Shown: positions 12,248-41,130, counted from the first letter of the stretch. The stretch is 64,000 nucleotides of DNA from an uncultured virus (IMG/VR IMGVR_UViG_3300030044_000012) (IMGVR_UViG_3300030044_000012); one strand, 5' to 3'. Notes: a model not told the origin generated them from the sequence alone. Program-made: numbers and translations.

Positions 12248-12971
12248 GGTGCGTCAGTCCTTGTGGTAACAAGGTACACACTTTTTCAGTGAGTATCTTT
12301 TTCAGATGTGTGTTCATCTCGGGGAGAGGATCAACCCCACCCAATTGTCGATACAGAGAATACAAATTCGTACGGCCAGTTTCATTGGTTACTGCTTTGC
12401 GAATTTTCTTCTCCACCTCCTCCGGAGTGTCATCTAAGAAGAGACAGCCATCCGGTTCGCTCTTGCTCATTTTTTTGGTCGGGTCGGTTAAACTCATGAC
12501 GCGACCGGCAGCGGGGTTGGCGATTGGTATTTTGACTTCCTCACCAAAGGTCTTGTTGTACCGGGCGAGGAGGTCACGGGCAAAGTTCAAGTGCTGGGAT
12601 TGGTCTTCCCCTACAATTACCTCATCGTATCCAGCCACGTCATGAACCATAAGCACTGGATAAACAAACAAATGAGCCGTCTTCTCATTACTGGCACGAA
12701 ACTGGGTCATCCGGTTCAGTTCGCCCGGATACGTCAGTGCCAACAGCCGAAAATATCGGGTGGCGTCAAAGGTGTTTTTCTGATGCTCTATATTCTTAAC
12801 ACCAAACTGCGACAAAGTAAATACCACAGAGGCAACCATTTTGTCTGAGCAAAAAGGAGCATGATATGTGGCAATTAAAACGGTCGCCCCGGATAGGGCT
12901 GGTTGAATACAAGCGAAGTAATGACCAAGGTGCAACCGCCCGGTTGGGCGGAGGCCGCAGAGAGATTTCAT
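12228..12971 (-). CDS. trpS: compact tryptophanyl-tRNA synthetase
   Basis: GLRPTGRLHLGHY (HIGH), YPVLM..D, VGEDQ.QHL..ARD and KMSKS. ATG at 12971 has a GGAG SD. Confidence 0.9.
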   Translation of the reverse strand: MKSLCGLRPTGRLHLGHYFACIQPALSGATVLIATYHAPFCSDKMVASVVFTLSQFGVKNIEHQKNTFDATRYFRLLALTYPGELNRMTQFRASNEKTAHLFVYPVLMVHDVAGYDEVIVGEDQSQHLNFARDLLARYNKTFGEEVKIPIANPAAGRVMSLTDPTKKMSKSEPDGCLFLDDTPEEVEKKIRKAVTNETGRTNLYSLYRQLGGVDPLPEMNTHLKKILTEKVCTLLPQGLTHHGSNSC

Positions 12972-12984
12972 AGCTGGCTCCGAT

Positions 12985-13554
12985 TTAATGGATGAGTTCG
13001 TCGTTGTAACGCAGATGTGGGTGTAGGTACTGGGGCGGTACTTCATCCACGAGCCAGACTCCATTGGGGGTTAGGTAAAAATGAATCCCGTTTTGATGCA
13101 TGTCGCCGGTCCTCACCGTTAACACCACCGGCTTACCATGTCGTTCACCGACCTTGAAGGCCGTCTGCAAATCCGCAGACAGGTGAACGTGGTGTCGGGA
13201 GCCCTTTATCAAACCTAATCTCAGGATGGAGCCAAGGAACCGTCTTGCGGTGCCGTGGTAGAGGAGCTTAGGTGGCTCCACAGGGTCATACTTAAGATCA
13301 ACCTTGATGCTGTGACCTTGAGATGCCCGGATTCGTTTGCCGTCGTCGGAGAACTCAAAACGCTTTTTGTCGTTCTCAGCTACAACCTCGTCAAGCTCTT
13401 CGCGGGTGATTTTATGCCCATGGGAAGCGCAACCCTGAAGGAGTTCTGCCACGGGGCACCAACCAGCCTCATCAAGGGTCAGGCCAGCTTCCTCGGGCTT
13501 GTGCCGCAAGATCAGGCTAAGGAACTTACTTGTACGTACGAGAGGGGTCGTCAT
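12985..13554 (-). CDS. kptA: RNA 2'-phosphotransferase (Tpt1/KptA)
   Basis: SKFLSLILRH, NDKKRF, IRASQGHS, LYHGT, RHHVHLS and NGVWL motifs. Confidence 0.95.
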   Translation of the reverse strand: MTTPLVRTSKFLSLILRHKPEEAGLTLDEAGWCPVAELLQGCASHGHKITREELDEVVAENDKKRFEFSDDGKRIRASQGHSIKVDLKYDPVEPPKLLYHGTARRFLGSILRLGLIKGSRHHVHLSADLQTAFKVGERHGKPVVLTVRTGDMHQNGIHFYLTPNGVWLVDEVPPQYLHPHLRYNDELIH

Positions 13555-13556
13555 AC

Positions 13557-13832
13557 TTACTCCGGTTGCGTGCTGCACACAGGGAGGTCGTGCTCGTCAA
13601 AAACATGTTCGGCCAGTGCGTAGGGAGGCCCATTCAACCAACCCTCTTCCTTGGCTTGGTCTTGGGATATAACCTTAATCCGGCAACCGTCTTGCGCGTG
13701 CAAGTCAACGCAAACAACTTCAATTTGGTCGATGCGAACGGCAACGACCACCCGAGTACCAATATCAGTACACTGATACTGCTTACCTGAGCACCAGAAG
13801 CGTTCACCAATTTTGAAATCTGAGAGTTTCAT
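13557..13832 (-). CDS. hypothetical protein (leaderless)
   Basis: GGTATAGT 6 nt before the ATG. Confidence 0.65.
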   Translation of the reverse strand: MKLSDFKIGERFWCSGKQYQCTDIGTRVVVAVRIDQIEVVCVDLHAQDGCRIKVISQDQAKEEGWLNGPPYALAEHVFDEHDLPVCSTQPE

Positions 13833-13865
13833 GGTTTAACTATACCATAGTTTAAGAATATTTTT

Positions 13866-13956
13866 TGGTGGGTGTGGAGGGATTTGAACCCCCACCATTA
13901 GCCCTCTCGGGTACGGATTAAAAGTCCGCTGTGCGACCAGATTACACTACACACCC
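13866..13956 (-). tRNA. tRNA-Lys(UUU) with long variable arm
   Basis: Acceptor GGGTGTG/CACACCC, loop CT-TTT-AA, 19-nt variable region with CCC-GAGA-GGG, CCA end. Confidence 0.88.
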
Positions 13957-13969
13957 ATGAAATAAATTT

Positions 13970-14044
13970 TGGTGGGTGCGGTCGGACTCGAACCGACATT
14001 TCGACGCTTAAAAGGCGAGTTTCCTGCCATTGAATGACGCACCC
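13970..14044 (-). tRNA. tRNA-Lys(UUU) with two anticodon-stem mismatches
   Basis: Cloverleaf with anticodon stem CTCGC/GCGTC and CCA end. Confidence 0.85.
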
Positions 14045-14058
14045 AAACACTTAAATTT

Positions 14059-14128
14059 TGGTGGGCGCGGAGGGAATCGAACCCTCGCCGAGTGGTTAAA
14101 AGCCACATGCTCGACCTTCGACACGCCC
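14059..14128 (-). tRNA. tRNA-Lys(UUU) with truncated D-arm (70 nt)
   Basis: D region is only TCGA-AGG-TCGA. Normal T arm and CCA end. Confidence 0.75.
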
Positions 14129-14161
14129 ATACAACAGTGTGGGCGCATAACCGAAAGGGAA

Positions 14162-14215
14162 CTAGACCCTTACGTTTATCCGACCACACTCGCGTTTTGT
14201 GCGTTTCAATGTCAT
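14162..14215 (-). CDS. putative leader peptide MTLKRTKRECGRINVRV before the Lys(UUU) trio
   Basis: Two AAA codons. The TAG stop sits in a hairpin loop. SD is weak. Confidence 0.35.
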   Translation of the reverse strand: MTLKRTKRECGRINVRV

Positions 14216-14389
14216 GTCTCAATCTCAGTCTGGACTACTTTACAGGCTGTCCACGAAGAACTTCTATTACACCGGGCTTCAGGCAGTTGCCACAAGCATT
14301 GGGTTTGATGACCACCGTCTTGTTCGGTGAAAAACAGCGGCACTGATTAAGCACCACCCCACACGAACATTTCTCAATAAAATGGTCAC

Positions 14390-14755
14390 TCATTTAGATG
14401 CCTTCTTGTCAAACTCAGCCTGAAGTTTTTCGTTCTCTTCAGGGGTGTTATCCTTATGATACACAGCTTCCCAACCAACAGCAACCATTAACTGATCGAA
14501 GTCCCCAGCGGCGTTAATCTTCTCGGTGAGCCCTATGACCCACTCACAGAAGCAGCCGGGGTATAAACTCGGAGTCCATTCCTCCTCGAAGCCATGTTCA
14601 TGACCACCCGCCTGAGCCTGTTTACGCTCTTCCTGACAGCCGGAGCACATCTGAGTAACAACGTAGGCTTCCGCTTCGTCCTCGGTCTTGAAGCCGCATC
14701 TGGAGGGGTCTTCAAAGCCCTCAGGCCGTGCCGGTAAATAAATAGCTGTGTACAT
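14390..14755 (-). CDS. hypothetical protein
   Basis: ORF fits the gene tiling. Confidence 0.6.
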   Translation of the reverse strand: MYTAIYLPARPEGFEDPSRCGFKTEDEAEAYVVTQMCSGCQEERKQAQAGGHEHGFEEEWTPSLYPGCFCEWVIGLTEKINAAGDFDQLMVAVGWEAVYHKDNTPEENEKLQAEFDKKASK

Positions 14756-15274
14756 CAGACCTCAATGAAACTGCTCGAATGGTATGCGGATTCAACAATG
14801 GTTTAAACTCGTCATATAAAGAACCCAAAGTTCCTTTATATGTTTTCGAGCGAACTTTGTGCTTACGCCAGTCAACTCCAGCTTGAGTTAACCGTATGGC
14901 TTTCAGTTGAGCCGAGGAGATAAGACAAGGAGTTGCAGTTGGGTCTTTACGACACTCTAGCAAATCCAAAACCAGTTCTCGCTTTGCTTCCCCTATTTCT
15001 CTTGCTGTGTACTCGGTGATGATACATAATCACCGCCCTCTGTCCACAACAGGAACCCCAGCAAGGCTTGCCGCCTTTAGTATGACATCGTAAGCTACGA
15101 TACCATACGCATCACCTAACCCACCAGCTACATGAGCAGCAATTTGAACCGCATCACAATCTAATACCCGATCTTTAATCAGCTTACGGGAGATTGCTGT
15201 GCTAAGTCCCTCTCGGCCTTCTTCTGTTTCCAGTCTTTGCTGGAGTCTTCGCCAATCCATTCAATCCTCAAATC

Positions 15275-15363
15275 TGGTGCCCCCGGCAGGATTCGAACCT
15301 GCGATTGAGATTTCTCTCGCGAGTTTAGGAAACTCGGGCCTTCGTCCGCTAGACTACGGGGGC
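15275..15363 (-). tRNA. tRNA-Arg(CCU) with long variable arm
   Basis: Loop TT-CCT-AA, V-arm GAGA-GAAA-TCTC, CCA end. Confidence 0.88.
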
Positions 15364-16409
15364 ATGAAACTTAAAACATAGAACGTTGGTACACCCGTTA
15401 GATTCATTATGGTTAGGACTTGCACACTGAACCATAAGGTGTAGCACTTGTTCAGTATCTCCACAAAAAGGGCACTTACTTTCGGTAGTGTACATGAAGC
15501 TACCACAATTCCCACAACAAAAACTTTGACCTTCTTCGCCATGGTACATAAAACTTCTGGCGGGACTACGGCTGAGACGAAGTTTTAGTTGTTCTTTGGC
15601 TTCCCTACTTGATGACATTCGTCACCTCTTTAGAGATGCGGTTCTGACGTTCCTTGTGCAATTGTCCACGCCAGTGCAATCCTAAAAATCCTACGAATGC
15701 GAAGAGCACAGTCTGTGCAGCACTGAGCCAAAGCAACTGGTTGACGAGTTCCTGATACGTCTCACAACTCATACGGACTCCGGGCTCCCAACTCTTTCAC
15801 TGTTTCGATGTCTTCAACTTTGAGCAACCGACGTTCCAACATGTGATTGAAGAAACGAGTTCGAGTGTTCATGAACTTCTTCAATCCCCGATTCTTCTGA
15901 GCGATGCCGTGCTTCCCGCATGTTGAATCCCATCCCCCACCATTCCGGCCTTGGCCGACGTATGCGGTGATTTTCTCAACAAAGCCGCGTTGGTGATTCG
16001 TCTTCACAATATTCCTTAAGCACAGCCTCGGTTACATCAAAGGGTTCAACGTCGATCATTGCTTTGACCTGTAACCCCGACTCGGGCATGTTCCTGCACC
16101 CTTCACAATTGGAATGCCACGTACACGGATGCTTCTCACACCCTATACCATAGTCACCATGCAAAGTCAACATACCTTACTCGCCTTGCTTTCAAATGCG
16201 TATCTTACCACAGACAACGGCCAAAATAGACACCAAAAAGTCAGGGCAGAGTAAAACACCCATTTTTGCTTCCGTGTGTATCTGGTGGTCGTATCCCCTA
16301 GAGGGAATGACATGACCAGCATAAACAGCCCGAGAGCGAGGCAAATATACGAGGTTAGACCGACTAAAAGCAGTAGCATATTAAGTCCTCAAACTGTGCT
16401 TGACAACCT

Positions 16410-16484
16410 TGGTGCCCCCGGCAGGAATCGAACCTGCTTCCTCGATTTAGAAGATCGGTGCCCTATCCATTGGACGACGAAGGC
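16410..16484 (-). tRNA. tRNA-Arg(UCU)
   Basis: Cloverleaf with loop CT-TCT-AA and CCA end. Confidence 0.9.
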
Positions 16485-17054
16485 AAAACTTGTTAGTACC
16501 CATCAGAGAGGTTCGCCAAACCCGGTTTGATTAGAACCCCCCATTTGTCGTAAACAGCTTCGGTCGAGTTGGGGTCGATGAACCCCATACAATACCAATC
16601 GCTTCGACCGTGAATCCACCTCGGTGCATGACACTTGAAGCATTCAACTTGCTCCAATTCTTTGATGTCAGGCATTGGTGTACCCCATCTTACAAAAGCC
16701 ACAGGTGCAGCCAGCTTCATGCACTGTGGAGCCCCGCTTTTCGGCTTCTACTCTAGCGGCCTCACCACAGTTGCCACAGTAGACTTCATTCATGTCGAAG
16801 TCACACCATACAACTTCATTTACAGCTACGCGACTGTCACAACCGCTACAATCAGCTTCGTTCTCCGCGTTTATCCAAGGCATATCACTGTACCGGACCG
16901 ACGAACGGATAACCGCGTGGCAAACAGTACATTCCAACCATCCAAAACAAGTGAACCTGTAGTCGTGACGAATACACATATTTCACTCCTAAAAAGGCTT
17001 CTCGCAATCCGTCCGGACGGACTCCCCTATCATCCTCTTAATTGAGGGTGATAG

Positions 17055-17624
17055 CTATTTTTCTAGTTCGATATTCCAATAAGCGTATGATGCCTTTTCC
17101 GCATACAACCAATTCTGCCACTCGACCCATTCCGGCCTGATGTGCTTGATGTGCAGCCGGAAGTTGAACCGAGGGTCATCGACCTTCGGTACGTAAGGCT
17201 GAGTACGAAGAGGCATATTTGCTTGCTTCGGGGTCATACCTGCCTTGGCCTTGTTGCACTTCTGGCAAGCTACAACCACGTTCATCCAAACAGTAACACC
17301 ACCCTGACAACGGGGGATGACGTGCTCAATCTGGAATTCTTCCGTCGAAACATGCTTACCGCAGTATTGACAGTTACCCTCGTCCCTGATGTAGATGTTA
17401 CGGCGAGAGCAAGGAACAGACATCTTCCTCTTCTTCGTCCAAGCGTTCTTCACTTGAATGACGCGGGGCATACCCATCTCAAAAGAGGTTGAGTGCAGCA
17501 TACGCCCACCCTCGTCTTCCTTGATGATGTTAGCGCGGTCTTCCCAGTAAAGCTTGACCGCATTCATCCAGTCGGTGAAACCGACAGGCTTCCAGTTCAT
17601 GTCGAGAACAAGAGTGTCATTCAT
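17055..17624 (-). CDS. HNH endonuclease
   Basis: RD...CQYCG, IEHVIPR..GG, N.V.AC..CN..K. Followed by a hairpin at about 17027-17054. Confidence 0.9.
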   Translation of the reverse strand: MNDTLVLDMNWKPVGFTDWMNAVKLYWEDRANIIKEDEGGRMLHSTSFEMGMPRVIQVKNAWTKKRKMSVPCSRRNIYIRDEGNCQYCGKHVSTEEFQIEHVIPRCQGGVTVWMNVVVACQKCNKAKAGMTPKQANMPLRTQPYVPKVDDPRFNFRLHIKHIRPEWVEWQNWLYAEKASYAYWNIELEK

Positions 17625-17799
17625 TGTGAACGCTCCTTACATACCTAGTGGTGATGCTTCATTGTCTCCCCTTGCACGGGTTGGATTTAGTTACTACTTC
17701 CCAACTCTTCGGAAAGTATAGCCGTCAGATAGCGGTGGTTTAGTGCTATTCCTTGAAGGGAGTATTTTTCATCTCCTCTCCTCACACTGGGGTGACCCA

Positions 17800-18240
17800 T
17801 CATCCCCGCTGGCTCAATCTCGTCATTGAAACCAAAGCTCCATGTTCGAAGATGGCGTCATACTCAAACCACTCAACCTCAGGTTTCGGAACAGGCTTCC
17901 CGTCCTCGCCCAACATTTCCACTTTGCCTTCTCCTTCAAAGGAAATCAAAAACAGATTTCCTGAATTCTCATCCCCGTAAAAGTTCAGGACTCCTGAAAA
18001 ATCTACAGGGTTCCAGCCCTTTGGAATCCTTGTACAGCTTCCGACCAAACGGGCAAATCCTTCGGCGCTTGGATCACTGCGGTCCTCGACATCATAGTCT
18101 TCAACCTCCAGCTTTCCTTCAACGGTAATGCGATAGTTGTCGAAGAAGGTCTCCAGACTCTTGGTCTGAAACTCAAACTTCGTCGGGTCATCCAAACCCG
18201 GCAACGGATACTCGCAATGTACGTAGTCGAACATGCCCAT
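17800..18240 (-). CDS. hypothetical phage protein (MGMFDYV...FQTK type)
   Basis: N-terminus typical of a recurrent phage family. Confidence 0.7.
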   Translation of the reverse strand: MGMFDYVHCEYPLPGLDDPTKFEFQTKSLETFFDNYRITVEGKLEVEDYDVEDRSDPSAEGFARLVGSCTRIPKGWNPVDFSGVLNFYGDENSGNLFLISFEGEGKVEMLGEDGKPVPKPEVEWFEYDAIFEHGALVSMTRLSQRG

Positions 18241-18416
18241 GTGATACCAAATTTCGTCGGCTTGTCTTTAATCACGTCGCAAGCAAGCCTGTTTGCAGTT
18301 ATCTCTGTCAATCGTTCATGTCTCAACTGTCTCAACTTAAAGGTGTTAAGCAACCTCATTGCACCAGTTTCGAATACTGAGAAGTTGGCGATGCCTTCAT
18401 TTAAGCCCTCAAATTT

Positions 18417-18492
18417 TGGTGCGTCGGGTGGGAGTCGAACCCACAACCTGTCGGTTAAGAGCCGAATGCTCTGCCAGTTGAGCTACCGACGC
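18417..18492 (-). tRNA. tRNA-Lys(CUU)
   Basis: Cloverleaf with loop CT-CTT-AA and CCA end. Confidence 0.93.
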
Positions 18493-19009
18493 ATGATCCC
18501 TTATTAAAGGGGTTAAAAGTTAAGGTTCACAGTGTGGTGCAGGAAGATGATTGCTGTCACTTCCACGACGACGTAGCTGACAAATACAAGAAACAGAATC
18601 CCAAAAATTGGGTTATCTTGCACGATGTCCAGAAGCTTATTCGCTAAATCCTTCACTATTTCCTCCGCTTATCTTCTTCACGCCATCGGTCGCGATATGC
18701 CTTCCAGCACTTGCGACAAACATTATGCTTCGACTCACCACGCATACGCTTATTGAGCGTCGTGCGAAAGATTGCCGGATACTTCCCACAATCCGAACAC
18801 GTCTGCGGCATGGGTAGCCGCCTTACTTCTGTACACATCCGGCATCGCTGAACCACTGAATGTTGATAACTGGCACTAACTCTTCGCTGGTGTCCGTCTC
18901 AACCCATTCATACGTGGCGGTCAGCTTGCTGGGCTTTGAATCGGTGGATTCCAGAATTACTTTGATGCTGTTCGTCAAAGCATTCGTAAGATTCACTTGA
19001 TCTGATGCA

Positions 19010-19879
19010 TCATACGACATTCAATCCCTCCAAGGCTCTAACTACGGCTCCCATATCGGAAGCGTAAAATCCAGAACTGTTCAAGGTGTTGATTTCTACC
19101 ACCTTGTACTCACCACCACAAAGTCCAATGTCCATCACGTATGCAGTGTCAATCGGCTCTGCATAGGTAGAGTCATAAGTGTCAGACTCTGAGCAATCCA
19201 CCGCCAGCATATCCTTCACGAACTCGACCATTGGATGAAACAATGGGTTGTTCGAATCTACCCTCTGGTACATTATCTGTCGCCCGAGAGTACGGTATGA
19301 ACTACCTGTTACTAGTGTACCATCAACTATGAAGAACCGTGCCTCAAGATCAATCTTTTTTGGCTCGGCGTACATCACGGGAGTCTCCGGGGTTAAGCTG
19401 ATGTACCCGTCGTTTGACAAATCCATTATCCGATTCTTCCACTCAGCCAGTGCCACCCCGTCAATGAGGGTGCCGCTGAACGACTTGGAATCATGCACCG
19501 GGCGAACGAACTTTGATCCTTCAAAATTCAGTTCACTGAACGGACAGAACTGAGCGTCATCATTGAGGAAGTGCGGACCAAACCGGGCCTTCAAGTACCT
19601 CATGTCGAACTTCTCGTTCTGAAACCGCCCCGGCTTCCAACCCTTCTCAACAGCGATGTGACCGAGGGTTGTCGCCCCCCAAACCATTACACTGCCCTCC
19701 AACTTCAACTCATGGGCGAACACAACGTCAGGGCCGAAGTTATGGTCGATAATGTCACCCTCTCTGGCATGAGCAAGAACCTTAACCACGGTGTACTGAC
19801 ACCCGTTTTCTTCGAGTGCGTCGAGCAAGGTCTTGAACCCAAACTCATTAAACAGGTTGTCTTGAACTATGTGGTGCAT
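19010..19879 (-). CDS. ATP-grasp protein (R2K/DUF4343-like)
   Basis: FVRP..D.KSFSG, E.RFFIVDG, YVMDIG and KVVEIN..NSSGFY motifs. Confidence 0.75.
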   Translation of the reverse strand: MHHIVQDNLFNEFGFKTLLDALEENGCQYTVVKVLAHAREGDIIDHNFGPDVVFAHELKLEGSVMVWGATTLGHIAVEKGWKPGRFQNEKFDMRYLKARFGPHFLNDDAQFCPFSELNFEGSKFVRPVHDSKSFSGTLIDGVALAEWKNRIMDLSNDGYISLTPETPVMYAEPKKIDLEARFFIVDGTLVTGSSYRTLGRQIMYQRVDSNNPLFHPMVEFVKDMLAVDCSESDTYDSTYAEPIDTAYVMDIGLCGGEYKVVEINTLNSSGFYASDMGAVVRALEGLNVV

Positions 19880-20163
19880 CTTCGTCGCTTTCTATCAACT
19901 CGGTTGAACAGTTGTCTTCGACTACACGAACATCCAGCCCGTCAACGTACGCCTTGATAGTGGGAACAAACTCCCATTCCTTGTAACGATCCCACGGGTC
20001 TTCAATCTCAAGAACCACTCGGAATCTTCTCAATCATCCACCCTGTTGAAATTCCCGTGGGTGTCGGAGACTACCTTAACTTCAACTTCCATCTTAAGTA
20101 TACCTCAGTGCTAATTGCACAAAAGGCTAATACTCGGAAACTTGGCTCACCCGAAAGGGACGC

Positions 20164-20259
20164 TTTGCGGTGCTAGTCGGTGTTCTCACCGGACAAGCTT
20201 GGGACATCCAATGTATCGCACTGGGGAGACCCTAGCTGGTGTTGTAACCACACCGCAAA
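20164..20259 (-). ncRNA. putative multibranched structured RNA
   Basis: Closing stems TTTGCGGTG/CACCGCAAA and GCTAG/CTAGC with internal hairpins. Intergenic. Confidence 0.4.
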
Positions 20260-20602
20260 CTTGTTACTTGCTGTACTTGTCTTTTAACTTTCCAGCTTCC
20301 GCCGCCTTCGTGGTGTAATACTCATATAGGTTCTTCGCCGAGTCGGCTGGTCTCGGGTACTTAGCGTATAGACTGACAGGTGCGTTCTTGCTACGCTCTA
20401 ACCACAGCGCCTTGGCCGCAGCAGCCTTCTGTTGATACTTTACTTGCAGGTTAGCATAATAAGCTGCGGTCTTCGGTGATTGAGCGTTTGCAAAACACGA
20501 CAGTAGAATGATGCTTACGAATAATGCTTTCATAAAATTACCTCCACTTATATAAGACTGGGGTAACCCATGAAGAATTTGGCAATTATTCATAAAACTT
20601 TT

Positions 20603-20676
20603 TGGCTCGGCGTCAGAGATTCGAACTCCGGTTAACTGGGTCAGAGCCAGTCGTCCTACCGCTGAACGAACGCCGA
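20603..20676 (-). tRNA. tRNA-Gln(CUG)
   Basis: Loop CT-CTG-AC, T1-A72 pair, G73, CCA end. Confidence 0.9.
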
Positions 20677-20677
20677 A

Positions 20678-21833
20678 CTATACTTCCTTAAGCACTTTCA
20701 TGCCAAGGAGGACCATACACTGTTGTAATACGCCAACTGCATAATGAAGGGCGTAAACGAACCCGGCATCACCATGCTGAATCGACTTCTTACCATACAC
20801 CTCTGACAGCTTCTTCGCCAGAGACAGAGCAAACTGTGCGATGTACGTAGGCTCCTTTTGGTCGATAGCCTTTTGCCAGTAGTATTGCAAGTAGCTGGCA
20901 AACCCACAAAGCTGGGCATCTTCCAGAGATAGAACATCCGGGTCACCTTCAATCGCAAAAGATAAAGCCTTGCTGACCTTTGCATTAGTGTGGGAGATGT
21001 AGATTCCGGGGCTTGTAATGTTGCACCAGTTCTTCACATCGCACACAGTGTCCTTACCTACTGACGTGGAGTTAAACTGCCACGCCAGCACGTTCCAAGC
21101 TAAATCGAAAGGGTGTGGCGTGGGTTTTAATACCGCAAGGGTCTCATTGATGAGTTCGTCGGCCAACATTAGGTTGACGTTCTCACCTTCCAACTTTACT
21201 GTACTCCGCATCTTTTTCTTATCGAGGCCGAGGACAAGCCCCATGGACAAATGTTTGTTGCCCACACCTAACGACTGAAAGTGTGAATGTTGTTCCTGAC
21301 CTGTAAGATAGAAATCAGGCTTCACAACTTCGGCGAAACTCAAGTCGTGTGCGGCGTAGGTTGCCGCTCCTGTAGACTTGTAGATCACCACGCTGCCCAG
21401 CATCTTGCATCCAGCGTACCCACCCTCACCTTCAGTGAGAAGCACGGTTGGGGCCGGTAGCTCATTGTCGAGATACATGACCGGACTGTATCCGGCGACT
21501 TGGCACCATGCCTTATACTTGGCAAGAGCACCCTCTACAACCCCATTGGCGGCTCCCAGCATCGCCACGGGTTTGGCTCCAGTGATGTTGGCAATCGCAG
21601 CCGCAATGCAAAGGTTTTTCAAATGCCCAACGTGAAGGTCTTTGTTCAGGTTAGGTGAAAACCCATCAAATATGATGCCTGATGGTACGGCCTTCGTCGG
21701 CCATTCCCAAGCTTGTGGGGTGACATGGTAGTTGTGAAATATTCCCGTGGGCTTATAATCAAACCCGACGAAGATACTCCAGTGAAGTCGAAGATGTAAT
21801 TCCGACTCCGATGTTCTCAGGCATTGGTTTCAT
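20678..21833 (-). CDS. argS: arginyl-tRNA synthetase split by a +1 frameshift near 21771
   Basis: FSPNLNKDLHVGH (HIGH, upstream of the TTG used by the ORF track), KSTG..TY...DL, GLV..DKKKMRS and EP..IA.F...LA...Y. The ATG at 21833 has an AGGAG SD but is in another frame. Confidence 0.82.
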
Positions 21834-22252
21834 GATGCGTCTCCTAAAATTACTCCAAAGGTGTGCCTCTCGGCCAAAGACTCTAAGGGCTGGCATGGTC
21901 GTCTCAGTACAGGGGTAAGGATGTCTTAATTCCCCGTTCCCAATCAGACCCACAGTTCCTCTCGTAATGTGTGGGCAAAACCATGTCTTGCTACTAGTTT
22001 GCCAAGTTGGCCGATGTAGGAGGATACTGACCCCGTTACCGGGGGGCTAAAGCCTACTGTCGAACCACTCAGGTACTCCATTCACATTCCCTGCGGTTAT
22101 ACGCTGGACTTTAGTGCATCCCCAAAACATTGTCCAGACCCTTGGCCTCGGTCGCGCTAGACCTACTACCCTCCGCTCGTCACTCCTTAGAAGATGGGAT
22201 TCTAACCCGACCTCCCTTTGGAACTTGTGTGGCCGAATGTCAGGCCACGAAG

Positions 22253-22325
22253 CTGGAACGGAAGGACTCGAACCTTCAACCTTGGGATTCAGAATCCCCT
22301 GCACTGCCAATTGTGCTACGTTCCA
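22253..22325 (-). tRNA. tRNA-Gln(CUG), CCA not encoded
   Basis: Acceptor TGGAACG/CGTTCCA and loop TT-CTG-AA. Confidence 0.88.
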
Positions 22326-22331
22326 AAAACT

Positions 22332-22408
22332 TGGTACCTCAGAGTGGATTCGAACCACTGAATGCGGCCTTATGAGAGCCGTGTCTTAGACCACTTGACG
22401 ACTGAGGC
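22332..22408 (-). tRNA. tRNA-Met/Ile2(CAU)
   Basis: Loop CT-CAT-AA and CCA end. Confidence 0.88.
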
Positions 22409-22745
22409 ATCTTTCTTTGTGGTGCCGACGTAAATGGCAGTTCGCACAAAGCATGATACACTTTTCAATTTCCACAATCAGTCTGGTGAGTGACCAACCA
22501 AGAACCCGACTGTCTGATACATTGGAATCCTTATCCCCTTGATGATGAAACTGGAGTACCACAATGTCGGTCTCCCCACAATCGAGGCAAGGATGTGATT
22601 CCTTGTACGTTTTGATGTATGCCCGGTTCCTCACCGTTGCAACTTCCGTGGTGTACTTCTTAGCCCTTGCCTTAACAGCTTCCTTGTTTGCTTCGTAATG
22701 GCGTTTCGCTGACCTAGCTTGTGCTTCTTTGTTCCTGTTACTCAT
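22386..22745 (-). CDS. HNH endonuclease (homing-type) ending inside a tRNA
   Basis: CLDCGE...LQFHH...LCANCH motifs. Probable start MSNRNK. Confidence 0.8.
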   Translation of the reverse strand: MSNRNKEAQARSAKRHYEANKEAVKARAKKYTTEVATVRNRAYIKTYKESHPCLDCGETDIVVLQFHHQGDKDSNVSDSRVLGWSLTRLIVEIEKCIMLCANCHLRRHHKERCLSRQVV

Positions 22746-22788
22746 ACAATAGACCTCTATGTATGAGTTAGGAAGTCGAATTTTAAAT

Positions 22789-22898
22789 TGGCTCGGGGGA
22801 CGAGATTCGAACTCGTGATAACCTCCAGCTTCGACTTCCCGGCGCATCCGGTCGGCCTTTATTACGCTGGCGCTTTGCCACGCCTAAGCTATCCCCTG
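22789..22898 (-). ncRNA. tRNA-like RNA with a 36-nt expanded anticodon loop
   Basis: D arm, CCAGC/GCTGG stem, ACGAG-TTCGAAT-CTCGT and CCA. The acceptor is only partly paired. Confidence 0.6.
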
Positions 22899-23294
22899 TA
22901 CTCAAGGGTCAATCTAATGTCTGTTCCGGCGATGTTTGGCACGAAAGGGACAATATATTAACTCTTCATTGAAAGTGAAGTAACCGTGGCGTACACCGCG
23001 ATGAGTAAATTGTCAAAGAACAAACTAACTCGGGCCTGAGCCCCTAAACTTCCACTTCTTCAACTTCGCTGGAGCCACATGCAGGGCATGTAATCCAGAA
23101 CTTCGTGTCGGGATGGTAAGCATCGCCAACCGCAATCTTTGCACTTGACCTGCTCTTCCATCACGTCATCCATGAGTGCAGTCCTTAATGTGGCTTGACC
23201 CATAGGGGCCACTAACACGAACCCACCCTCTTCCATAACAACGCTTGCAAAATAAGGAAGCAAACCAACGTCGAATCATTACATCTCCCAAACT

Positions 23295-23347
23295 TGGGGA
23301 GGGTTGATTTTCGCCAAGGTTATGACCCTTGTAGCGGACAACCCTCC
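23295..23347 (-). ncRNA. armless tRNA-like RNA with CAT loop
   Basis: GGAGGGTTG/CAACCCTCC plus CCA, and CAAGG-GTCATAA-CCTTG. Confidence 0.5.
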
Positions 23348-23457
23348 TTTGCCGCCTTCCGCGTTACCAGATGCACGACAAACTCAGCGGACGTGGGAAG
23401 CTGTTTCCCTTCTAAGTAGGACTTACTCACACGGCCTACACGTCCTAAACTATGTTA

Positions 23458-23548
23458 TGGCTCCGAGGGTAGGATTCGAACCTACAGGGAAGGATAAACC
23501 AACACGCATTAACAGTGCGTTCCGTTGCCAATTACGGTTTACCTCGGA
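23458..23548 (-). tRNA. tRNA-Asn(GUU) with 18-nt variable region
   Basis: Loop CT-GTT-AA, G73, CCA end. Confidence 0.85.
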
Positions 23549-23555
23549 ACAACTT

Positions 23556-23630
23556 TGGCTCACTCGGAGAGATTCGAACTCCCGACCCGCTGGTTAACGG
23601 CCAGCCGCTCTGCCACTGAGCTACGAGTGA
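23556..23630 (-). tRNA. tRNA-Asn(GUU) with C33
   Basis: Loop CC-GTT-AA and CCA end. Confidence 0.88.
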
Positions 23631-23650
23631 ACAACTTGTACATCTAAACT

Positions 23651-23739
23651 TGGCTCAAGGGAAGAGACTCGAACTCTCAGAGGGCTTTCACCCACTTGCT
23701 TAACAGGCAAGTACGCTACCAGTTACGTTTTACCCTTGA
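23651..23739 (-). tRNA. tRNA-Asn(GUU) with long variable arm
   Basis: V-arm GGGT-GAAA-GCCC and CCA end. Confidence 0.86.
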
Positions 23740-23761
23740 ACAACTTGTGCTTCTAAACCTT

Positions 23762-23836
23762 TGGCAGGGGCGGAGGGATTCGAACCCCCAAGTTCGGTTT
23801 TGGAGACCGACAGTTTGCCGTTGAGCTTACGCCCCT
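23762..23836 (-). tRNA. tRNA-Trp(CCA)
   Basis: Loop CT-CCA-AA, G73, CCA end. Confidence 0.9.
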
Positions 23837-23842
23837 GTAACT

Positions 23843-23949
23843 TAGACGACGGGCGTCCTTCCGTTGAACGACGCGATGCTCTATGCATCTGGTAGAGGAC
23901 TTACTAACGGCCTTGACCAGATGGGATTCGAACCCATACAGCCCGTCTA
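23843..23949 (-). ncRNA. circularly permuted tRNA-like RNA (YrlA-like order)
   Basis: T arm precedes D arm, closed by GACGGGC/GCCCGTC. Confidence 0.5.
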
Positions 23950-23967
23950 CTTGTTGGGCAAACTTCT

Positions 23968-24041
23968 TGCCCGAATAGTAGGACTCGAACCTACACTGTG
24001 TCTCGTTCGTAGCGAGATTGACTATCCATTGCCGATGGGGC
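23968..24041 (-). pseudogene. degenerate tRNA-Arg(ACG)
   Basis: Intact anticodon and T arms. Broken acceptor stem and no CCA. Confidence 0.6.
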
Positions 24042-24271
24042 CACATGTCACCGTTCGATTACTTTTCGGCATGTCACCGAACGGGTACAAACTTGAGCCG
24101 GGGCTTACCCGGAACAGCGGACTTACTCCGACCGCCGCCCGTGGGCTCGGTCACTGCGTCTGCCAGAGGATTTACTCACTCGACCTCTGCTACACTTCGA
24201 AAGAGGCAACATATTACCTATTACACGGTCAAATCGCACATAACCGGCAATATGTTGCCTTTTATCCAACT

Positions 24272-24360
24272 TGGTGTACCCGGAGGGACTCGAACCCCCG
24301 TGGAGAACTTTCGTTCAACAGATTCGTAGTCTGGTGCCTCATCCGCTAGGCTACGGGTAC
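24272..24360 (-). tRNA. tRNA-Arg(ACG) with long variable arm
   Basis: V-arm GAAC-GAAA-GTTC and CCA end. Confidence 0.88.
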
Positions 24361-24452
24361 ATGGTGAAACTAAATCCGCCCCCTTTGCCATTTGTTGTCG
24401 CGAACAACGCCGCTTACGCGGGAACCGATTTGAACGGTCTCAGGGATGGTAC

Positions 24453-24528
24453 TGGGGCACCCGGTGAGAATCGAACTCACGACCTACTCCTTCGGAGGGA
24501 GCCGCTCTATCCACTGAGCTACGGGTGC
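24453..24528 (-). tRNA. tRNA-Arg(CCG)
   Basis: Loop CT-CCG-AA and CCA end. Confidence 0.92.
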
Positions 24529-24757
24529 AAAACTTAAGCCGGGTCTCTCCAGCCGGGGGTCACTCCACTTCGACTTGCCATTCAACCTAACTTCGGACAT
24601 CCCGAAGGTCTATTGACTGTCTTCACCGCCGAGTGGCGGAACGTCACGCAAGGTGTCGCGTTCTCGACGTAGATTCTAGCGGTGGATTTCCTTCAGGGTT
24701 TCCCCTTACTGGTATTACATCCCTTTCGGGTACCGCACTGTCCACGTCGAAACTTAT

Positions 24758-24833
24758 TGGGGCGGCTGGAGAGATTCGAACTCTCGACTACCTGAGCCAC
24801 AGTCAGGCGTTCTACCGCTGAACTACAGCCGCC
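24758..24833 (-). tRNA. tRNA-His(GUG), G-1 encoded
   Basis: Loop CT-GTG-GC, G-1:C73 pair, CCA end. Confidence 0.92.
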
Positions 24834-24847
24834 ATAAAAACAAAACT

Positions 24848-24928
24848 TGGGGCGAATGGTGGGAATTGAACCCACGAGACCACGGTTTCACAGACCGGAG
24901 GCACATACCAACACTGCCGACAAACGCC
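24848..24928 (-). tRNA. tRNA-His(GUG) variant, G-1 encoded
   Basis: Loop CT-GTG-AA, two T.T acceptor mismatches, CCA end. Confidence 0.8.
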
Positions 24929-25046
24929 ATAAACTTTGGGGTCTCTCCCTCCCGTCAAGCCGACACGTCTGGCTTTCGACCTATTACGCTCATGTTGTCA
25001 AACATCATCTCGATTTGACCTGAGTCAATCGGAATATCGTACATCT

Positions 25047-25134
25047 TGGCAGGGGTGGAGGGGGTCGAACCCTCAGTGAGCGTTACGCTCGGCGGTTTTG
25101 GAGACCGCTGCATTTCCAACAATGCTTCACCCCT
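25047..25134 (-). tRNA. tRNA-Trp(CCA) with long variable arm
   Basis: V-arm GAGCG-TAA-CGCTC, G73, CCA end. Confidence 0.88.
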
Positions 25135-25166
25135 AAAAACAAAAAGCCCTAGCCGGTGGCTAGGGT
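25135..25166 (-). terminator. attenuator terminator 1
   Basis: ACCCTAGCC-ACC-GGCTAGGGC plus TTTTTGTTTTT, abutting tRNA-Trp. Confidence 0.88.
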
Positions 25167-25195
25167 CATGTGAATCCAATCTGGCGGCTTAGGAG

Positions 25196-25297
25196 TTAAT
25201 CATCCCAACCCTCCACGACGGAGCACAGACCCATAGCATGGCGCTGATTTCGCTTTTGCCACTGGTGCCGCATCGGATTGGACTGTTTCATCGTCAT
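25196..25297 (-). CDS. attenuator leader peptide 1 (MTMKQSNPMRHQWQKRNQRHAMGLCSVVEGWDD)
   Basis: TAAGGA SD. Codons match the downstream tRNA set. The 3' half forms the antiterminator. Confidence 0.82.
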   Translation of the reverse strand: MTMKQSNPMRHQWQKRNQRHAMGLCSVVEGWDD

Positions 25298-25466
25298 GGT
25301 GATTCCTTATGCGAGGCGTCTTCACAACCTCACTTACTTATAGTACCCGAAGTCGAGATATTTACAACACTATTTTTTGATTTATTTTCGAAAATCTGTG
25401 GAAAACCCTAAATTTGACAATTTCAGCCATTTCCGTTAAAACTCTTCTTGCGTCGAAAGGAGCGTC

Positions 25467-25859
25467 ATGCCTACCGCCACATACCAATGTGACAAGTGCG
25501 ACCATCAGCCATTCAAGGCCCCCACTGCTCTTGGGAGGCACAAACTATCAGCCCACGGAATTCCCGGCAACTCTTCTTCATCAATTGCCTACCGCAAGGC
25601 CAAGGAGGCTAATGCCCTTACTTCAAAAAGATCACTCGCAGCAACGAAACCCCCGCAAACGCATCAAGCTACAAATCGTCTCCCGAAACCCGAGAGCCAC
25701 CAAGCTGGCTACCAAAACCAAATCCCCGAAGGTGCCCTCGCCGTTGCCTTCGGGCGCTTCCAAGAACTTTGCCGCAGCTTTGCATTTGAATATGACTTAC
25801 CTCCAAAGCTGTTTACCTCCCGGCTCTCTCAACTTATATCAGCCTCGGCGGTACGGTAA
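25467..25859 (+). CDS. C2H2 zinc-finger protein, divergent from leader 1
   Basis: CDKC...F.....LGRH...AH motif, AAGGAG SD, TTGACA at 25414. Confidence 0.75.
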   Translation: MPTATYQCDKCDHQPFKAPTALGRHKLSAHGIPGNSSSSIAYRKAKEANALTSKRSLAATKPPQTHQATNRLPKPESHQAGYQNQIPEGALAVAFGRFQELCRSFAFEYDLPPKLFTSRLSQLISASAVR

Positions 25860-26336
25860 CCGTCTTGGGGTTCCCTGCGTGTGTCAGCAGTGTGGCGACC
25901 GGCCACCCAACTACATTCGACCTTGGAATCGTTGGCGGTGGATGAACTTTCACATGTTCGTTCGTCATACGCTTAAGCAGGTTCCGATGGTGACGGACTA
26001 ACCGCGTACCTGAGTGCTTCAAGCACTTGTTCTGCGAGGGTCTTATCGGCACCGTCGATACTTGATGTGTGTCTTCCGTACCTATCTGGGGCGGTAAGTT
26101 CTACGTAAGCAGAACCCCGCTCCACTGTAATGGAGATGTTGCAGTCATCGGGTAGGTCTCGGGCTGCTTCTTGAATGGCATCCTGCAACGTGGGTGCGGT
26201 TGCCCTCAACTCAACCCGCCCACCGAGACAGAGAGCTTCAACCTGTCTATCTACGAAGTCTCGTTTAAGGGCATCTTCCAGACTGGAGTAGTCACACTCC
26301 CACATCTCTTGAGACACTGAATCACGTAGCTCCATG

Positions 26337-26603
26337 CTAACCTCGTTTCCAGTTGTGAAGCTCTTTACCCACATGGGGTCGTTTCTGAATCCACGCTATC
26401 CAAGTTTGAACATCTGGATGCGCCTTGAGTAAATCAATCGTGTTGAACTCGCGTTCTAACTGCTTCTCAGTGAAGAGCCGGTGAATCTGGCTATGACAGG
26501 GGCGACAAATCCACTCCGTCTTATTGCGGTCGATACCCAGTTCCCGCTTCACTTTTTTGTTATGACGCGCCTTCGGGATGATGTGGTGCCTCGTCAGCCT
26601 CAA
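26337..26603 (-). CDS. small HNH-like protein (YisB-like)
   Basis: LTRHHIIP...ICRPCHSQIH motif. Confidence 0.7.
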   Translation of the reverse strand: MRLTRHHIIPKARHNKKVKRELGIDRNKTEWICRPCHSQIHRLFTEKQLEREFNTIDLLKAHPDVQTWIAWIQKRPHVGKELHNWKRG

Positions 26604-26927
26604 CTCATCCCGTTCGCATACTTAAGTCCCTACTTACCTTCGGGGCGTTTGTCCAAACCTTTTTCGGCGAGAACTTCCGCCACGTCGTCAACATGCAAGC
26701 AATCACACATACAGGCGTAGTCATTCGGTGGCTGAATCGCGGCGATATTGCCATTGCAGTAGTCGTTCCCCGGCGTCGCGCTATGCAGAACACCGAAAGA
26801 CACTACCTTTCCGTCCTGTAGCTTGATGATCTTGTCGCCATTCTTTGCTTCACGTCCATTGCGATAGTGCATGTCATTCTCCTTTGCTCCCGAGGGAGTC
26901 AAATAGTTTGCATATTCCTGTCATGGC

Positions 26928-27452
26928 TTAGTCGTGACTGTATCCTTCAGTTTCAATCTTGACGCCATTATCCTTCTTGGTAACGATGACGCTAACGTGG
27001 TCACCGAACATGGCCTCGTAATCGTCGCTGCAAAAAAGGCCAAGGAATTCACCGAGGGCCTTATGAGCCGCGTGCTTCGAACTCTCTTCCTCGGTGACCT
27101 GCCTCTTGACCCACTTATACTTCGTCTGTTTGACAGTCCGACCACGCCAGTCGGTTACTTCTTCCTCCCCATCACACACCCGGTCAGAGTCCCTGAAGTG
27201 GTATTCATTCAAATCCTCTTCATCACCAAACTGGATGTAGGGATCATCGGTGTGTGCGCTGAAAGTACACGCATCGCCATCATTGAAATACGGAGTGTAC
27301 TGCGTCCAACTGAAGGCCACCAACTTTGGGTGCTCTTCAAAAATGGTTTCAACGGCCTCTTTGAAAAGCCGCTTGCCAGTATCCTTGATTTCCTTCTCAA
27401 GCTCCTCACGCCGCTTGCGGAAGGACTTTAACTGCTCAATTGCGTCTGCCAC
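26928..27452 (-). CDS. conserved phage protein
   Basis: WTQYTPYFNDGDAC.F motif. Confidence 0.7.
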   Translation of the reverse strand: MADAIEQLKSFRKRREELEKEIKDTGKRLFKEAVETIFEEHPKLVAFSWTQYTPYFNDGDACTFSAHTDDPYIQFGDEEDLNEYHFRDSDRVCDGEEEVTDWRGRTVKQTKYKWVKRQVTEEESSKHAAHKALGEFLGLFCSDDYEAMFGDHVSVIVTKKDNGVKIETEGYSHD

Positions 27453-30164: not shown

Positions 30165-32126
30165 TCATAGATGTCCTTCCTTCTTCCAGTGGTAAAGCAT
30201 CGCCTCTACTACAATCTTGTTGATGGCCCCACGATCACACAGGGGTGGCAATGGAGACACCTTCTCCGCTTCAACCACAGCTTCGCGAAGTCGGTTGTAC
30301 TCACTCGTAACACGCTCGATGTTCCACCCACCGTTACGGATTTCGAGGAGTGTCGATACATTCGGACGAGGGAAGGTCATAGTTCCGGTCTGCAACAGTT
30401 CAAGGCATTCATCCATAGAGCGAACCATGTGCATCGCGGCCTTGCAGTTTCCTTGAAATGCGGGACGACCTTGACTGCGAGTGACCAGTGTGCCCAACGG
30501 CATTTCAAAGCAGACAACCCGGTGATTTTCCACTTTGATTTCCTTGATGGGGTAACCATACTTCTGCTTCGGCTCCTCTCCTGCCCTCAGGATTCCACTT
30601 TTGAAGTTGACACAACGAAACTGACTTTGGTCAGCGGGGCGGTACACCTGATACATCGGAATGTTTCCTAATTTGGTTTCATCTCGGTCGTATTCATAAG
30701 GACCGTTGACCACACAAATATGCCCTGAAGACACCATCATTGCTTGAACATCATCGGCCAATTTCTTAACCGATGTATAAAGGAGGGTGCCTTGCCCATC
30801 CTTTCTTTCTTTCTTGGTACGATAACCATCACCCAAGCAAAGACTGTTCCATAAAATCCACGCCTGTTCGTAGCCCAATTGGAAACACCAATCAGGTAAA
30901 TGCTTAGCCTTGTGGTGACCGAAGTCCTCGTATAGCTTGTACGCCAGCTTCCTTGGGAAGGTCCAAACTGTCTCATATTCGACGTGTTCGCGTGGATAAT
31001 CATAGCGGTGCCCATGGAAAATTGTACGCAGCCTATCTGCGTACTGGTAATACTCTTCTTTGCCTTCGGGTGTTTGCACAACCCTAACGCTCTTCACCCT
31101 CCCCTCGCGAAAAGAGATGCTGCCCTCTGACAGGTATAACCCAGCCAGTGACAGGTATTCATCCATCACATCGTATTGATAGATGCGTGGTGAGGCCGAA
31201 CGAGGAGTATGGTACATCGAGCGTACAACTCGGGCTTTAACCCCGCCCATGAGGTCTGACAATTGAACGAGACGCCAATCGGCTTTACCGGGGTAATATT
31301 TTGTGCTGAATCCTAATTTAGGGTTTCTGGACGCAGGGGATGCCACCATATTGTGGTTGGGAGTCACAACACAGCGAGTGAGTTGAGGTTCAACAACGTA
31401 CATGAAACCCGAATGATATTTATCAATCCTCCGCAGCGGAGTGTCAAATCGCACAGCATCAAACCGCACGCCGGATGTCTGTCCCTTAATGAAGTCAAAC
31501 GTGGCTAGTTTGTCCGAATCAAGCACATCATCAAATCGCTTCCAACCGTGGTCAGTGAGAAACTCTGTTTCAGAATCAAGGTAGCAATCGTACCCATGGG
31601 CAGCTATCAAATCATCCCTCTGACCATGTTTCCCGGCTCCCTGTAGCCCCAACAAGCGGTTGTACTGGCTCTTCCCTAGTCCGAGGAAGGCCGCAGTGTG
31701 TCCAGAGGCAAGGAAGAGGCTCCTGTGAGGTAGAATGTAGGTGTCCCATACGCTCGGGTGAGTCACATGACTATCCTTGATGGGTTCGGGAGCGAATAGG
31801 TAGCTGAGGATGGTAGGGTTACCCTTCATGGCGAGTCCCGCCCAGCGCCTGAGAGTGTAAGCTTTAAGATCGGTGTCATCAGCCGTGTTCTTTTCGTATT
31901 GGTCGGACGTTCCCTGTGTGATGTGTCCCTTCTGTCGAGGGTCTTCATTTCCGAGGGCGAGTTCGAACACAGGGTCGCCGATGTACACACCGGCCACATC
32001 GAGGTCGGACTTCCCTTCGATACGGGCTCCGTGCATTGAAGAGCCTGACGCGAAGGCAAGAATCACCTGATCCAACCTCAGCATCGGATTTCTCAACAAC
32101 ACATTAACCAATTCACCGTTAAGCAC
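30165..32126 (-). CDS. DNA polymerase-beta-superfamily nucleotidyltransferase (RlaP/YcgL-like) with intein
   Basis: GS..HG.....SDLD..GVY, KGNP..L..LF, GYD|..|CKAAMH..R motifs. Confidence 0.85.
   Translation of the reverse strand: MLNGELVNVLLRNPMLRLDQVILAFASGSSMHGARIEGKSDLDVAGVYIGDPVFELALGNEDPRQKGHITQGTSDQYEKNTADDTDLKAYTLRRWAGLAMKGNPTILSYLFAPEPIKDSHVTHPSVWDTYILPHRSLFLASGHTAAFLGLGKSQYNRLLGLQGAGKHGQRDDLIAAHGYDCYLDSETEFLTDHGWKRFDDVLDSDKLATFDFIKGQTSGVRFDAVRFDTPLRRIDKYHSGFMYVVEPQLTRCVVTPNHNMVASPASRNPKLGFSTKYYPGKADWRLVQLSDLMGGVKARVVRSMYHTPRSASPRIYQYDVMDEYLSLAGLYLSEGSISFREGRVKSVRVVQTPEGKEEYYQYADRLRTIFHGHRYDYPREHVEYETVWTFPRKLAYKLYEDFGHHKAKHLPDWCFQLGYEQAWILWNSLCLGDGYRTKKERKDGQGTLLYTSVKKLADDVQAMMVSSGHICVVNGPYEYDRDETKLGNIPMYQVYRPADQSQFRCVNFKSGILRAGEEPKQKYGYPIKEIKVENHRVVCFEMPLGTLVTRSQGRPAFQGNCKAAMHMVRSMDECLELLQTGTMTFPRPNVSTLLEIRNGGWNIERVTSEYNRLREAVVEAEKVSPLPPLCDRGAINKIVVEAMLYHWKKEGHL
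30447..31586 (-). mobile_element. intein with LAGLIDADG endonuclease (380 aa)
   Basis: Starts CYLDSETEFLT..GWK, block B VTPNH, LAGLYLSEG and LCLGDG, ends FQGN|C. Confidence 0.9.
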
Positions 32127-41107: not shown

Positions 41108-41130
41108 CTGGAAACTTGTTGAAGACTTGT

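Follow-up and report, generated by a model that had tools for sequence, protein, structure and literature searches.

The window analysed here, a 64,000-nt stretch of DNA from an uncultured virus, is phage-like by its sequence and carries nearly all of its genes on the minus strand. ARAGORN and Rfam together located 21 tRNA genes in two clusters, and the encoded proteins include Ku, an NAD-dependent ligase, a TrpRS-like protein and HNH endonucleases. A putative tRNA repair kit is also present, consisting of a Tpt1/KptA 2′-phosphotransferase, an RlaP-like nucleotidyltransferase, an ATP-dependent RNA ligase and a Thg1-like enzyme (12985-13578, 30165-32126, 54584-55834 and 61702-62562), genes that would fit a phage expecting tRNA damage. 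Matches to the INPHARED phages were tRNA-sized and covered at most 3% of the query. Of the DNA runs labelled peat metagenome, 23 contained the segment 23500-26500, and 12 of these had at least half of its sampled words.

One of the tRNA arrays is headed, on the minus strand, by a tightly spaced series of elements in the order promoter-like site, Shine-Dalgarno sequence, 33-codon ORF, terminator, T-tract and tRNA-Trp, referred to below as the Trp unit. Its features, in the direction of transcription, are:

25340-25376, minus strand: promoter-like region, with an A-rich AAAATAG (25376-25370), TTGTAA (25367-25362), a 16-nt spacer that contains CTCGACTTCGGG, and TACTAT (25345-25340)
25304-25308, minus strand: Shine-Dalgarno-like AAGGA, 6 nt 5′ of the ATG
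25196-25297, minus strand: leader ORF of 33 codons plus TAA (ATG at 25297, TAA at 25196), encoding the basic peptide MTMKQSNPMRHQWQKRNQRHAMGLCSVVEGWDD
25257-25283, minus strand: region 1, the predicted anti-antiterminator, in which codons 5-14 pair with the antiterminator 5′ arm and the spacer when the ribosome is absent
25273-25238, minus strand: control codons 9-20
25203-25237, minus strand: region 2, the predicted antiterminator 5′ arm (codons 21-32)
25195-25202, minus strand: predicted antiterminator apical loop UGAUUAAC, holding the stop codon UAA (25198-25196)
25158-25194, minus strand: region 3, the predicted antiterminator 3′ arm, whose last 8 nt (25165-25158, CCCUAGCC) are the terminator left arm
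25135-25165, minus strand: intrinsic terminator with stem CCCUAGCC/GGCUAGGG (25165-25158 and 25154-25147), loop ACC and tract CUUUUUGUUUUU (25146-25135)
25047-25134, minus strand: tRNA-Trp(CCA), 88 nt with a long variable arm (Rfam, 48.9 bits), the first gene past the terminator
13866-25046, minus strand: remainder of the array, with His (two), Arg(CCG), Arg(ACG), Trp, Asn (two), CAU, Gln (two), Lys(CTT), Arg(TCT), Arg(CCT) and Lys(TTT) (two)

A 30-nt spacer separates the leader ORF from the terminator, and tRNA-Trp begins at the base right after the T-tract. Since the upstream neighbour (25467-25859) lies on the other strand, the transcription unit must begin in the divergent intergenic region. 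The promoter-like sequences were compared by aligning four upstream regions, and they were also sought in a related viral contig of 42.5 kb from a peat phage, G001, which is described below. The motif [AG]ACTT[TC]-N2-9-TA[TC][TA]AT has two sites in the 64-kb window and two in G001, and in both sequences 2 of 2 stand before leaders; no reverse-strand match to the motif was found in G001, and none to a backwards control pattern. At the equivalent place in the Trp-type leader of G001 the Shine-Dalgarno sequence reads AAAGGA, and a core of this kind accompanies 21 of the 36 long ORFs of the window.

A reading made from the sequence alone had proposed that the leader lists exactly the amino acids carried by the downstream tRNAs. 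Direct reading of codons 9-20 confirmed them as ATG CGG CAC CAG TGG CAA AAG CGA AAT CAG CGC CAT; all 12 specify Met, Arg, His, Gln, Trp, Lys or Asn, and each of the seven is present. The same reading had counted 18 of the first 22 leader codons in this set, which also stands and corresponds to a binomial P of 8.6e-8 given a six-frame background of 0.263; after codon 20, the set accounts for 2 of 13 codons. No other run of the set in the six-frame translation of the 64 kb is as long as these 12 codons, the next being two runs of nine. The array itself, from 25134 to 13866, is as limited as had been claimed, with 16 of 16 ARAGORN predictions falling within Trp, His, Arg, Asn, CAU, Gln and Lys. 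Rfam adds two tRNA-like matches, one (14062-14128) being Lys(TTT) at the ARAGORN low threshold and the other (23463-23546) being called poorly as Leu(TAA)-like and having an odd anticodon loop. Anticodons of the array can read 11 of the 12 control codons if standard wobble rules apply; CAA has no reading anticodon there, CTG being the only Gln anticodon. The leader contains neither AGA nor AGG, codons for which the array does have tRNAs.

The array extends over 11 kb and has HNH, ATP-grasp and ArgRS-C-terminal-like ORFs scattered through it, as well as several weak terminator-like sites. Long variable arms are normally confined to Ser, Leu and Tyr tRNAs. Long-arm, class-II-like tRNAs of 88-91 nt were found here for Trp(CCA), Arg(ACG), Asn(GTT), Arg(CCT) and Lys(TTT), and one His tRNA measures 80 nt (25134-25047, 24360-24272, 23739-23651, 15363-15275, 13956-13866 and 24927-24848, all on the minus strand). 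For most of these (Trp, Asn, Lys and His) a tRNA of normal length with the same anticodon lies nearby, and the variable stem of the Trp tRNA is preserved with a different sequence both in G001 and in a variant from a sequencing run (A-U to G-C). In or beside the array lie a diverged, short TrpRS-like ORF and an ORF with weak likeness to the C-terminal part of ArgRS (12228-13064 and 20678-21622). The former matches TIGR00233 with an E of 6e-33, yet scores below the curated cut-off; the latter, provisionally called argS, weakly matches ArgRS in its C-terminal, anticodon-binding half only (TIGR00456, E 3.3e-4; DALR, E 2.9e-4). The long-arm Trp and Arg tRNAs belong to this array, and the two ORFs may be dedicated partners of them.

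Two further kinds of sequence were seen between or near the tRNA genes. The spacer between tRNA-His and tRNA-Arg (24529-24757, minus strand) is 229 nt long and structured, with GNRA-type hairpins (z -2.1); it matched no Rfam family, and an identical 157-nt piece of it occurs in RNA library X24. At 23840-24270 and 40400-40520 (minus strand) are T-arm-like or acceptor-like fragments (GGTTCGAGTCCTAC, GGGTTCGAATCCCAT and GGTTCAAATCCTGC) that ARAGORN did not call and that may represent tRNA genes which are degraded, split or interrupted.

The terminator (CCCTAGCC-acc-GGCTAGGG, then CTTTTTGTTTTT) has eight pairs, six of them G-C, around a loop of three, and its stem (25165-25147) is the top-ranked terminator-like site of the region 13000-27000. 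The sequence-only reading had also paired the 3′ half of the leader with the spacer. All of the following pairings from it were recovered in the minimum-energy fold of 25158-25237: GCTA/TAGC, GGGTC/GACCC, TGTG/CACA, TGG/CCA and TTGGGA/TCCTAA. This predicted antiterminator hairpin has a free energy of -38.9 kcal/mol (z -4.93), with none of 200 shuffles as stable, and its base takes up CCCUAGC, in agreement with the proposal that the hairpin sequesters the terminator left arm. The ribosome-free minimum-energy fold of the whole of 25135-25310 (-61 kcal/mol, z -2.70, again 0/200 shuffles as stable) leaves the terminator intact.

The effect of ribosome position was investigated at equilibrium with a model in which folding was allowed only for RNA 3′ of the ribosome edge. 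An alternative measure, the pairing of the left arm with upstream sequence in truncated transcripts, was dropped, being high at most positions and permitting pairs that span the ribosome. The modelled probability that the terminator forms, P(terminator), varied with the codon in the A site as follows:

no ribosome: 0.99
A site on codons 1-7: 0.94-0.99
A site on codons 10-16: 0.08-0.17
A site on codons 17-18: about 0.73
A site on codon 19 to the stop codon: 0.92-0.99

It had been predicted that a ribosome at TAA would melt the hairpin, whereas one stalled early in the control codons would leave most of it free. This holds in the folding model, in which only an A site on codons 9-16 leads to loss of the terminator. 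As to the control run being the stall site, the prediction stands for codons 9-16, while codons 17-20 fall outside the predicted effective window. Placing the 3′ footprint edge at +9, +12 or +15 shifted the stall window by no more than one codon, and between 0 and 4 of 300 dinucleotide shuffles of the upstream part competed with the terminator as well. Taken together, the scan, the footprint and the shuffle results place the modelled stall-sensitive window on the first eight control codons.

A second unit built on the same plan lies in front of the tRNA-Ser genes of the window:

41087-41271, minus strand: second unit, with the same promoter motif and a leader ORF (41223-41131) encoding MKNTLSISTSSSSSSSSTGRGGGGSVDTWD
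41105-41087, minus strand: terminator GCCACCC-aaatc-GGGTGGC, then a T-tract
41071-40984, minus strand: tRNA-Ser(GGA), followed by Ser(TGA), CAU, Ser(CGA) and Leu(TAA)

The leader of this Ser unit contains a run of eight Ser codons, the longest Ser run in the six frames of the window (the next has six), and 10 of its codons 6-17 are Ser (P 4.4e-9). It also contains Thr and Gly codons and the Ser codons AGC and AGT, for which the window has no tRNA. Codons 21-23 (GGU GGU GGC) mimic the terminator right arm and would close an antiterminator hairpin (-27.8 kcal/mol, z -4.03) whose loop contains UGA. In the ribosome model P(terminator) falls only to 0.57-0.84 for this unit. Ser-type leaders lack a Shine-Dalgarno sequence, and the distance from the -10 box to the ATG is about 10 nt. 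Elsewhere in the window, GGTATACTA stands 5-6 nt 5′ of the ATG in three genes (starts 1587, 36305 and 47028, minus strand), which suggests that it is a -10 box giving leaderless mRNAs, as implied for the Ser-type leaders too, and that such mRNAs are normal here.

The contig G001 was reached through its ATP-grasp gene (74% identity); it is syntenic with the window and keeps both the Trp-type and the Ser-type unit. Its Trp-type leader encodes MTMKQTNSMRQWQKRNHRRATGLCSVMRDIKW, in which the first 27 residues of the window peptide are largely conserved. In the control run the two leaders differ by a Gln to His change, a His to Arg change and a one-codon deletion, all within the seven-amino-acid set, and the 14 tRNAs of the G001 array likewise all carry one of the same seven identities. 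A 16-nt block of region 2, GGGTCTGTGCTCCGTC, is identical in the two sequences and its flanks differ, as does the terminator stem of the G001 Trp unit (CCCTCGG/CCGAGGG). The Ser-type leader of G001 encodes MKNMISISSSSSSSSTSGWDGMGVCA, within which GGGACGGC mimics the terminator right arm. Peptide tails and hairpin apices differ between the window and G001, and both G001 units still fold into long hairpins; with RNAalifold, the apices of the two Trp-unit orthologues did not align. Antiterminator z values were -4.03 for the window Ser unit and -2.93 and -3.51 for the two G001 units, all three have intrinsic terminators, and the stop codon falls in the apical loop in four of four units, being UAA in both from G001. 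An HNH-like ORF (L088 4909-5240) sits between the G001 attenuator terminator and tRNA-Trp, and HNH genes interrupt the window arrays too.

In the ribosome model P(terminator) for the G001 Ser unit was 0.02-0.06 with the A site on codons 9-15 and rose to 0.98 from codon 16 onwards. For the G001 Trp unit the value fell only to 0.56-0.87, and 17-35 of 300 shuffles did as well. A clear equilibrium switch was thus obtained for two of the four units, the window Trp unit and the G001 Ser unit. In the window Ser and G001 Trp units, as modelled, the antiterminator would have to take kinetic precedence. Since the stability of the terminator also exceeds that of the antiterminator in the classical trp system, such precedence may suffice in these weaker units.

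Natural variation was also followed in contigs assembled from sequencing runs, which are of low depth. A 287-nt contig from DNA run X18 is a third variant of 25136-25372 and shares the one-codon deletion of G001, so that the leader frame is kept in both through a 3-nt indel. X18 further differs by nine substitutions and five more indels, all inside 25183-25212, the hairpin apex. Two apical-stem pairs change from U-A to A-U while the C-terminus of the peptide changes; three other substitutions break pairs when read position for position, a reading in which the five nearby indels make the register uncertain. Metatranscriptome library X24 yielded a 163-nt contig of another variant that spans the spacer, the terminator and tRNA-Trp (25182-25048). 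Both A25161 and U25151, partners in the terminator stem, are lost in it, and a 7-bp stem remains. This contig could be a read-through precursor or DNA carried into the library; the RNA run held 9% of the sampled words, and its contigs leave 25217-26226 uncovered.

Further cases were sought by several routes. An unbiased scan of the window and 81 related loci for an ORF, a terminator and a tRNA in succession yielded no codon-matched leader other than those of the window and G001. Among viral contigs the tRNA-Trp 24-mer was found in G001 only, and a leader 21-mer matched three loci in metagenome contigs, all identical to the window or to G001, leaving two full sequence variants in the collections searched. 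Two routes to relatives in viral contigs were abandoned: the RlaP-like protein gave six pattern matches, none confirmed, and the promoter pattern gave seven loci, all unrelated chance matches with no tRNA. Among 80 loci neighbouring DUF6915 no other codon-matched leader was seen, and in the closest of them (L008-L010 and L015) tRNA-His directly follows a protein gene, with no leader. A distant DUF6915-bearing viral contig (L011, 7838-8117) has two tRNAs with a CTA anticodon, amber suppressors, beside tRNA-Glu, which hints at stop-codon recoding in that phage.

The anatomy of the locus, the match of codons to tRNAs, the alternative folds, the paralogue and the orthologues, all read from sequence, suggest that the Trp unit is probably a multivalent, ribosome-mediated leader-peptide transcription attenuator that heads a phage tRNA operon. 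It has the parts expected of one, namely an ORF with start signals, a cognate codon run, a terminator, and a competing antiterminator with a region 1, although the competition between antiterminator and terminator is weaker in two of the four units. The putative targets differ from the classical ones, amino-acid biosynthesis or aminoacyl-tRNA synthetase genes; the first putatively regulated gene is tRNA-Trp, followed by at least 15 tRNAs. That the leader is translated, that ribosomes stall on it and that read-through is regulated in this way is what we infer from the arrangement.

As proposed, a transcript would start at the dedicated promoter and a ribosome would translate the 33-codon leader. 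Shortage of usable tRNA for any of the seven amino acids would stall it on the control codons, effectively within about codons 9-16 (Met Arg His Gln Trp Gln Lys Arg), where the stalled ribosome would cover region 1. Region 2 (codons 21-32), once freed, would pair with the spacer, and the resulting antiterminator would bury the terminator left arm, letting RNA polymerase read into tRNA-Trp and the later tRNA genes. With smooth decoding the ribosome would instead unwind region 2 and halt at the UAA in the apical loop; the left arm would be released, the terminator would form, and transcription would stop 1 nt 5′ of the tRNA. If the leader were not translated at all, region 1 would hold region 2 and the terminator would be expected to form too. 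Since the output would be the very tRNAs whose shortage is sensed, such a circuit would act as a supply-on-demand feedback loop.

Three other explanations were weighed; an attenuator accounts better than any of them for the codon statistics, the paralogue and the pattern of variants. The terminator might simply be leaky and constitutive, setting a fixed low level of tRNA, with an ORF that has no regulatory effect and a codon composition that has no function. The equilibrium result, in which the terminator wins at every ribosome position in two of the four units, would be expected from such an element. We nevertheless consider it unlikely, as the longest run of its kind in six frames would then lie by chance exactly before the matching tRNAs, the same logic would recur with Ser codons before tRNA-Ser genes and again in G001, substitutions inside the control run would have stayed within the amino-acid set, and both the placing of the stop codon in the antiterminator loop in four of four units and the coincidence of the modelled stall window with the control codons would be left without an explanation.

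The ORF could alternatively encode a small basic peptide with a function and a terminator of its own, the tRNAs being transcribed from a separate promoter. The basic character of the peptide and the extent to which its first 27 residues are retained in G001 are in keeping with this, and yet it seems very unlikely. No promoter-like site was found by a scan of the minus strand of 25135-25330, and the T-tract abuts the first base of tRNA-Trp, so that there is no room for a separate promoter. The C-terminal part of the peptide varies among the variants while RNA pairing is kept, a search of the protein collection with the 61-aa G001 leader frame returned no homologue, and the contig from the RNA library bridges the terminator and the tRNA. 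Least probable of all is a switch set by protein or tRNA binding to the leader RNA, of T-box or TRAP type and with an incidental ORF, for although the leader RNA is highly structured and the phage TrpRS-like and ArgRS-C-terminal-like proteins could bind RNA, Rfam at gathering score matched only tRNAs across the whole window (no leader family, no T-box) and at E up to 10 gave two chance-level matches in 25100-25420, the leader RNA has no specifier-loop or T-box motif, and translation is indicated by the Shine-Dalgarno sequence, by a 3-nt indel that keeps the frame and by substitutions that stay within the set.

If attenuation by the leader peptide is accepted as the more probable reading, a role for it can be suggested tentatively. 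According to PMC12409363, bacterial immune systems widely target tRNAs, and the tRNAs that some viruses encode serve to counter this. Both attenuators might be counter-defence sensors, each acting as an OR gate over its codon set, with which the phage would switch on replacement tRNAs. The trigger would be host immunity directed at tRNA (anticodon nucleases and the like) or depletion driven by infection. Loss of any host Met, Arg, His, Gln, Trp, Lys or Asn tRNA would stall the first leader, and the second gate would answer to Ser, Leu and Ile tRNAs. The replacements would include the parallel set with long variable arms, which may escape the nucleases, and the synthetase-like and repair genes embedded in the array would be switched on as well. 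Were this so, only a host that attacks tRNA would trigger the supply of tRNAs.

Phage tRNA genes are usually seen as constitutive helpers in codon usage or as spares against tRNA-cleaving defences, and to our knowledge the control of their expression is essentially undescribed. Full-text searches, judged from titles and the opening lines of abstracts, returned no published case in which tRNA genes, whether of phages or of cells, are controlled by leader-peptide attenuation. A leader-peptide attenuator with the sensed tRNA as its output would, if confirmed, be a new use of a textbook mechanism, one in which decoding capacity is measured directly rather than through amino-acid supply, and would provide a compact, natural, seven-input sensor of translation stress. 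The element, at about 200 nt, is transferable to a reporter, and the model is directly testable. The signature of a codon-matched leader, a terminator and a tRNA could also serve in the annotation of phage tRNA operons.

Among known systems the closest in plan are the enterobacterial attenuators of amino-acid operons, with trpL and hisL as the classic examples and with multivalent leaders in thr (Thr and Ile codons) and ilvGMEDA (Leu, Val and Ile codons). The Trp unit resembles them in its short putatively translated leader and, for the multivalent members, in a run of codons for more than one amino acid; in a predicted four-region RNA with 1:2, 2:3 and 3:4 pairings; in an intrinsic terminator directly before the regulated genes; and in a stop codon placed so that a finishing ribosome would block the antiterminator. 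It differs in that the targets are tRNA genes rather than biosynthetic enzymes and the signal would be a shortage of tRNA rather than of amino acid, in having seven amino acids in one run, in being encoded by a phage, and in lacking any relation to them in sequence or in Rfam. The E. coli pheST attenuator, with its pheM leader, shares a target in the translation apparatus and leader codons that match the amino acid served, but there the target is a synthetase and the amino acid a single one, whereas here the tRNAs themselves, for seven amino acids, would be controlled. T-box riboswitches likewise sense a specific tRNA pool and place a terminator/antiterminator switch before translation-related genes; they do so, however, by binding uncharged tRNA without an ORF, whereas in the Trp unit an ORF with a Shine-Dalgarno sequence and a codon run is the proposed sensor.
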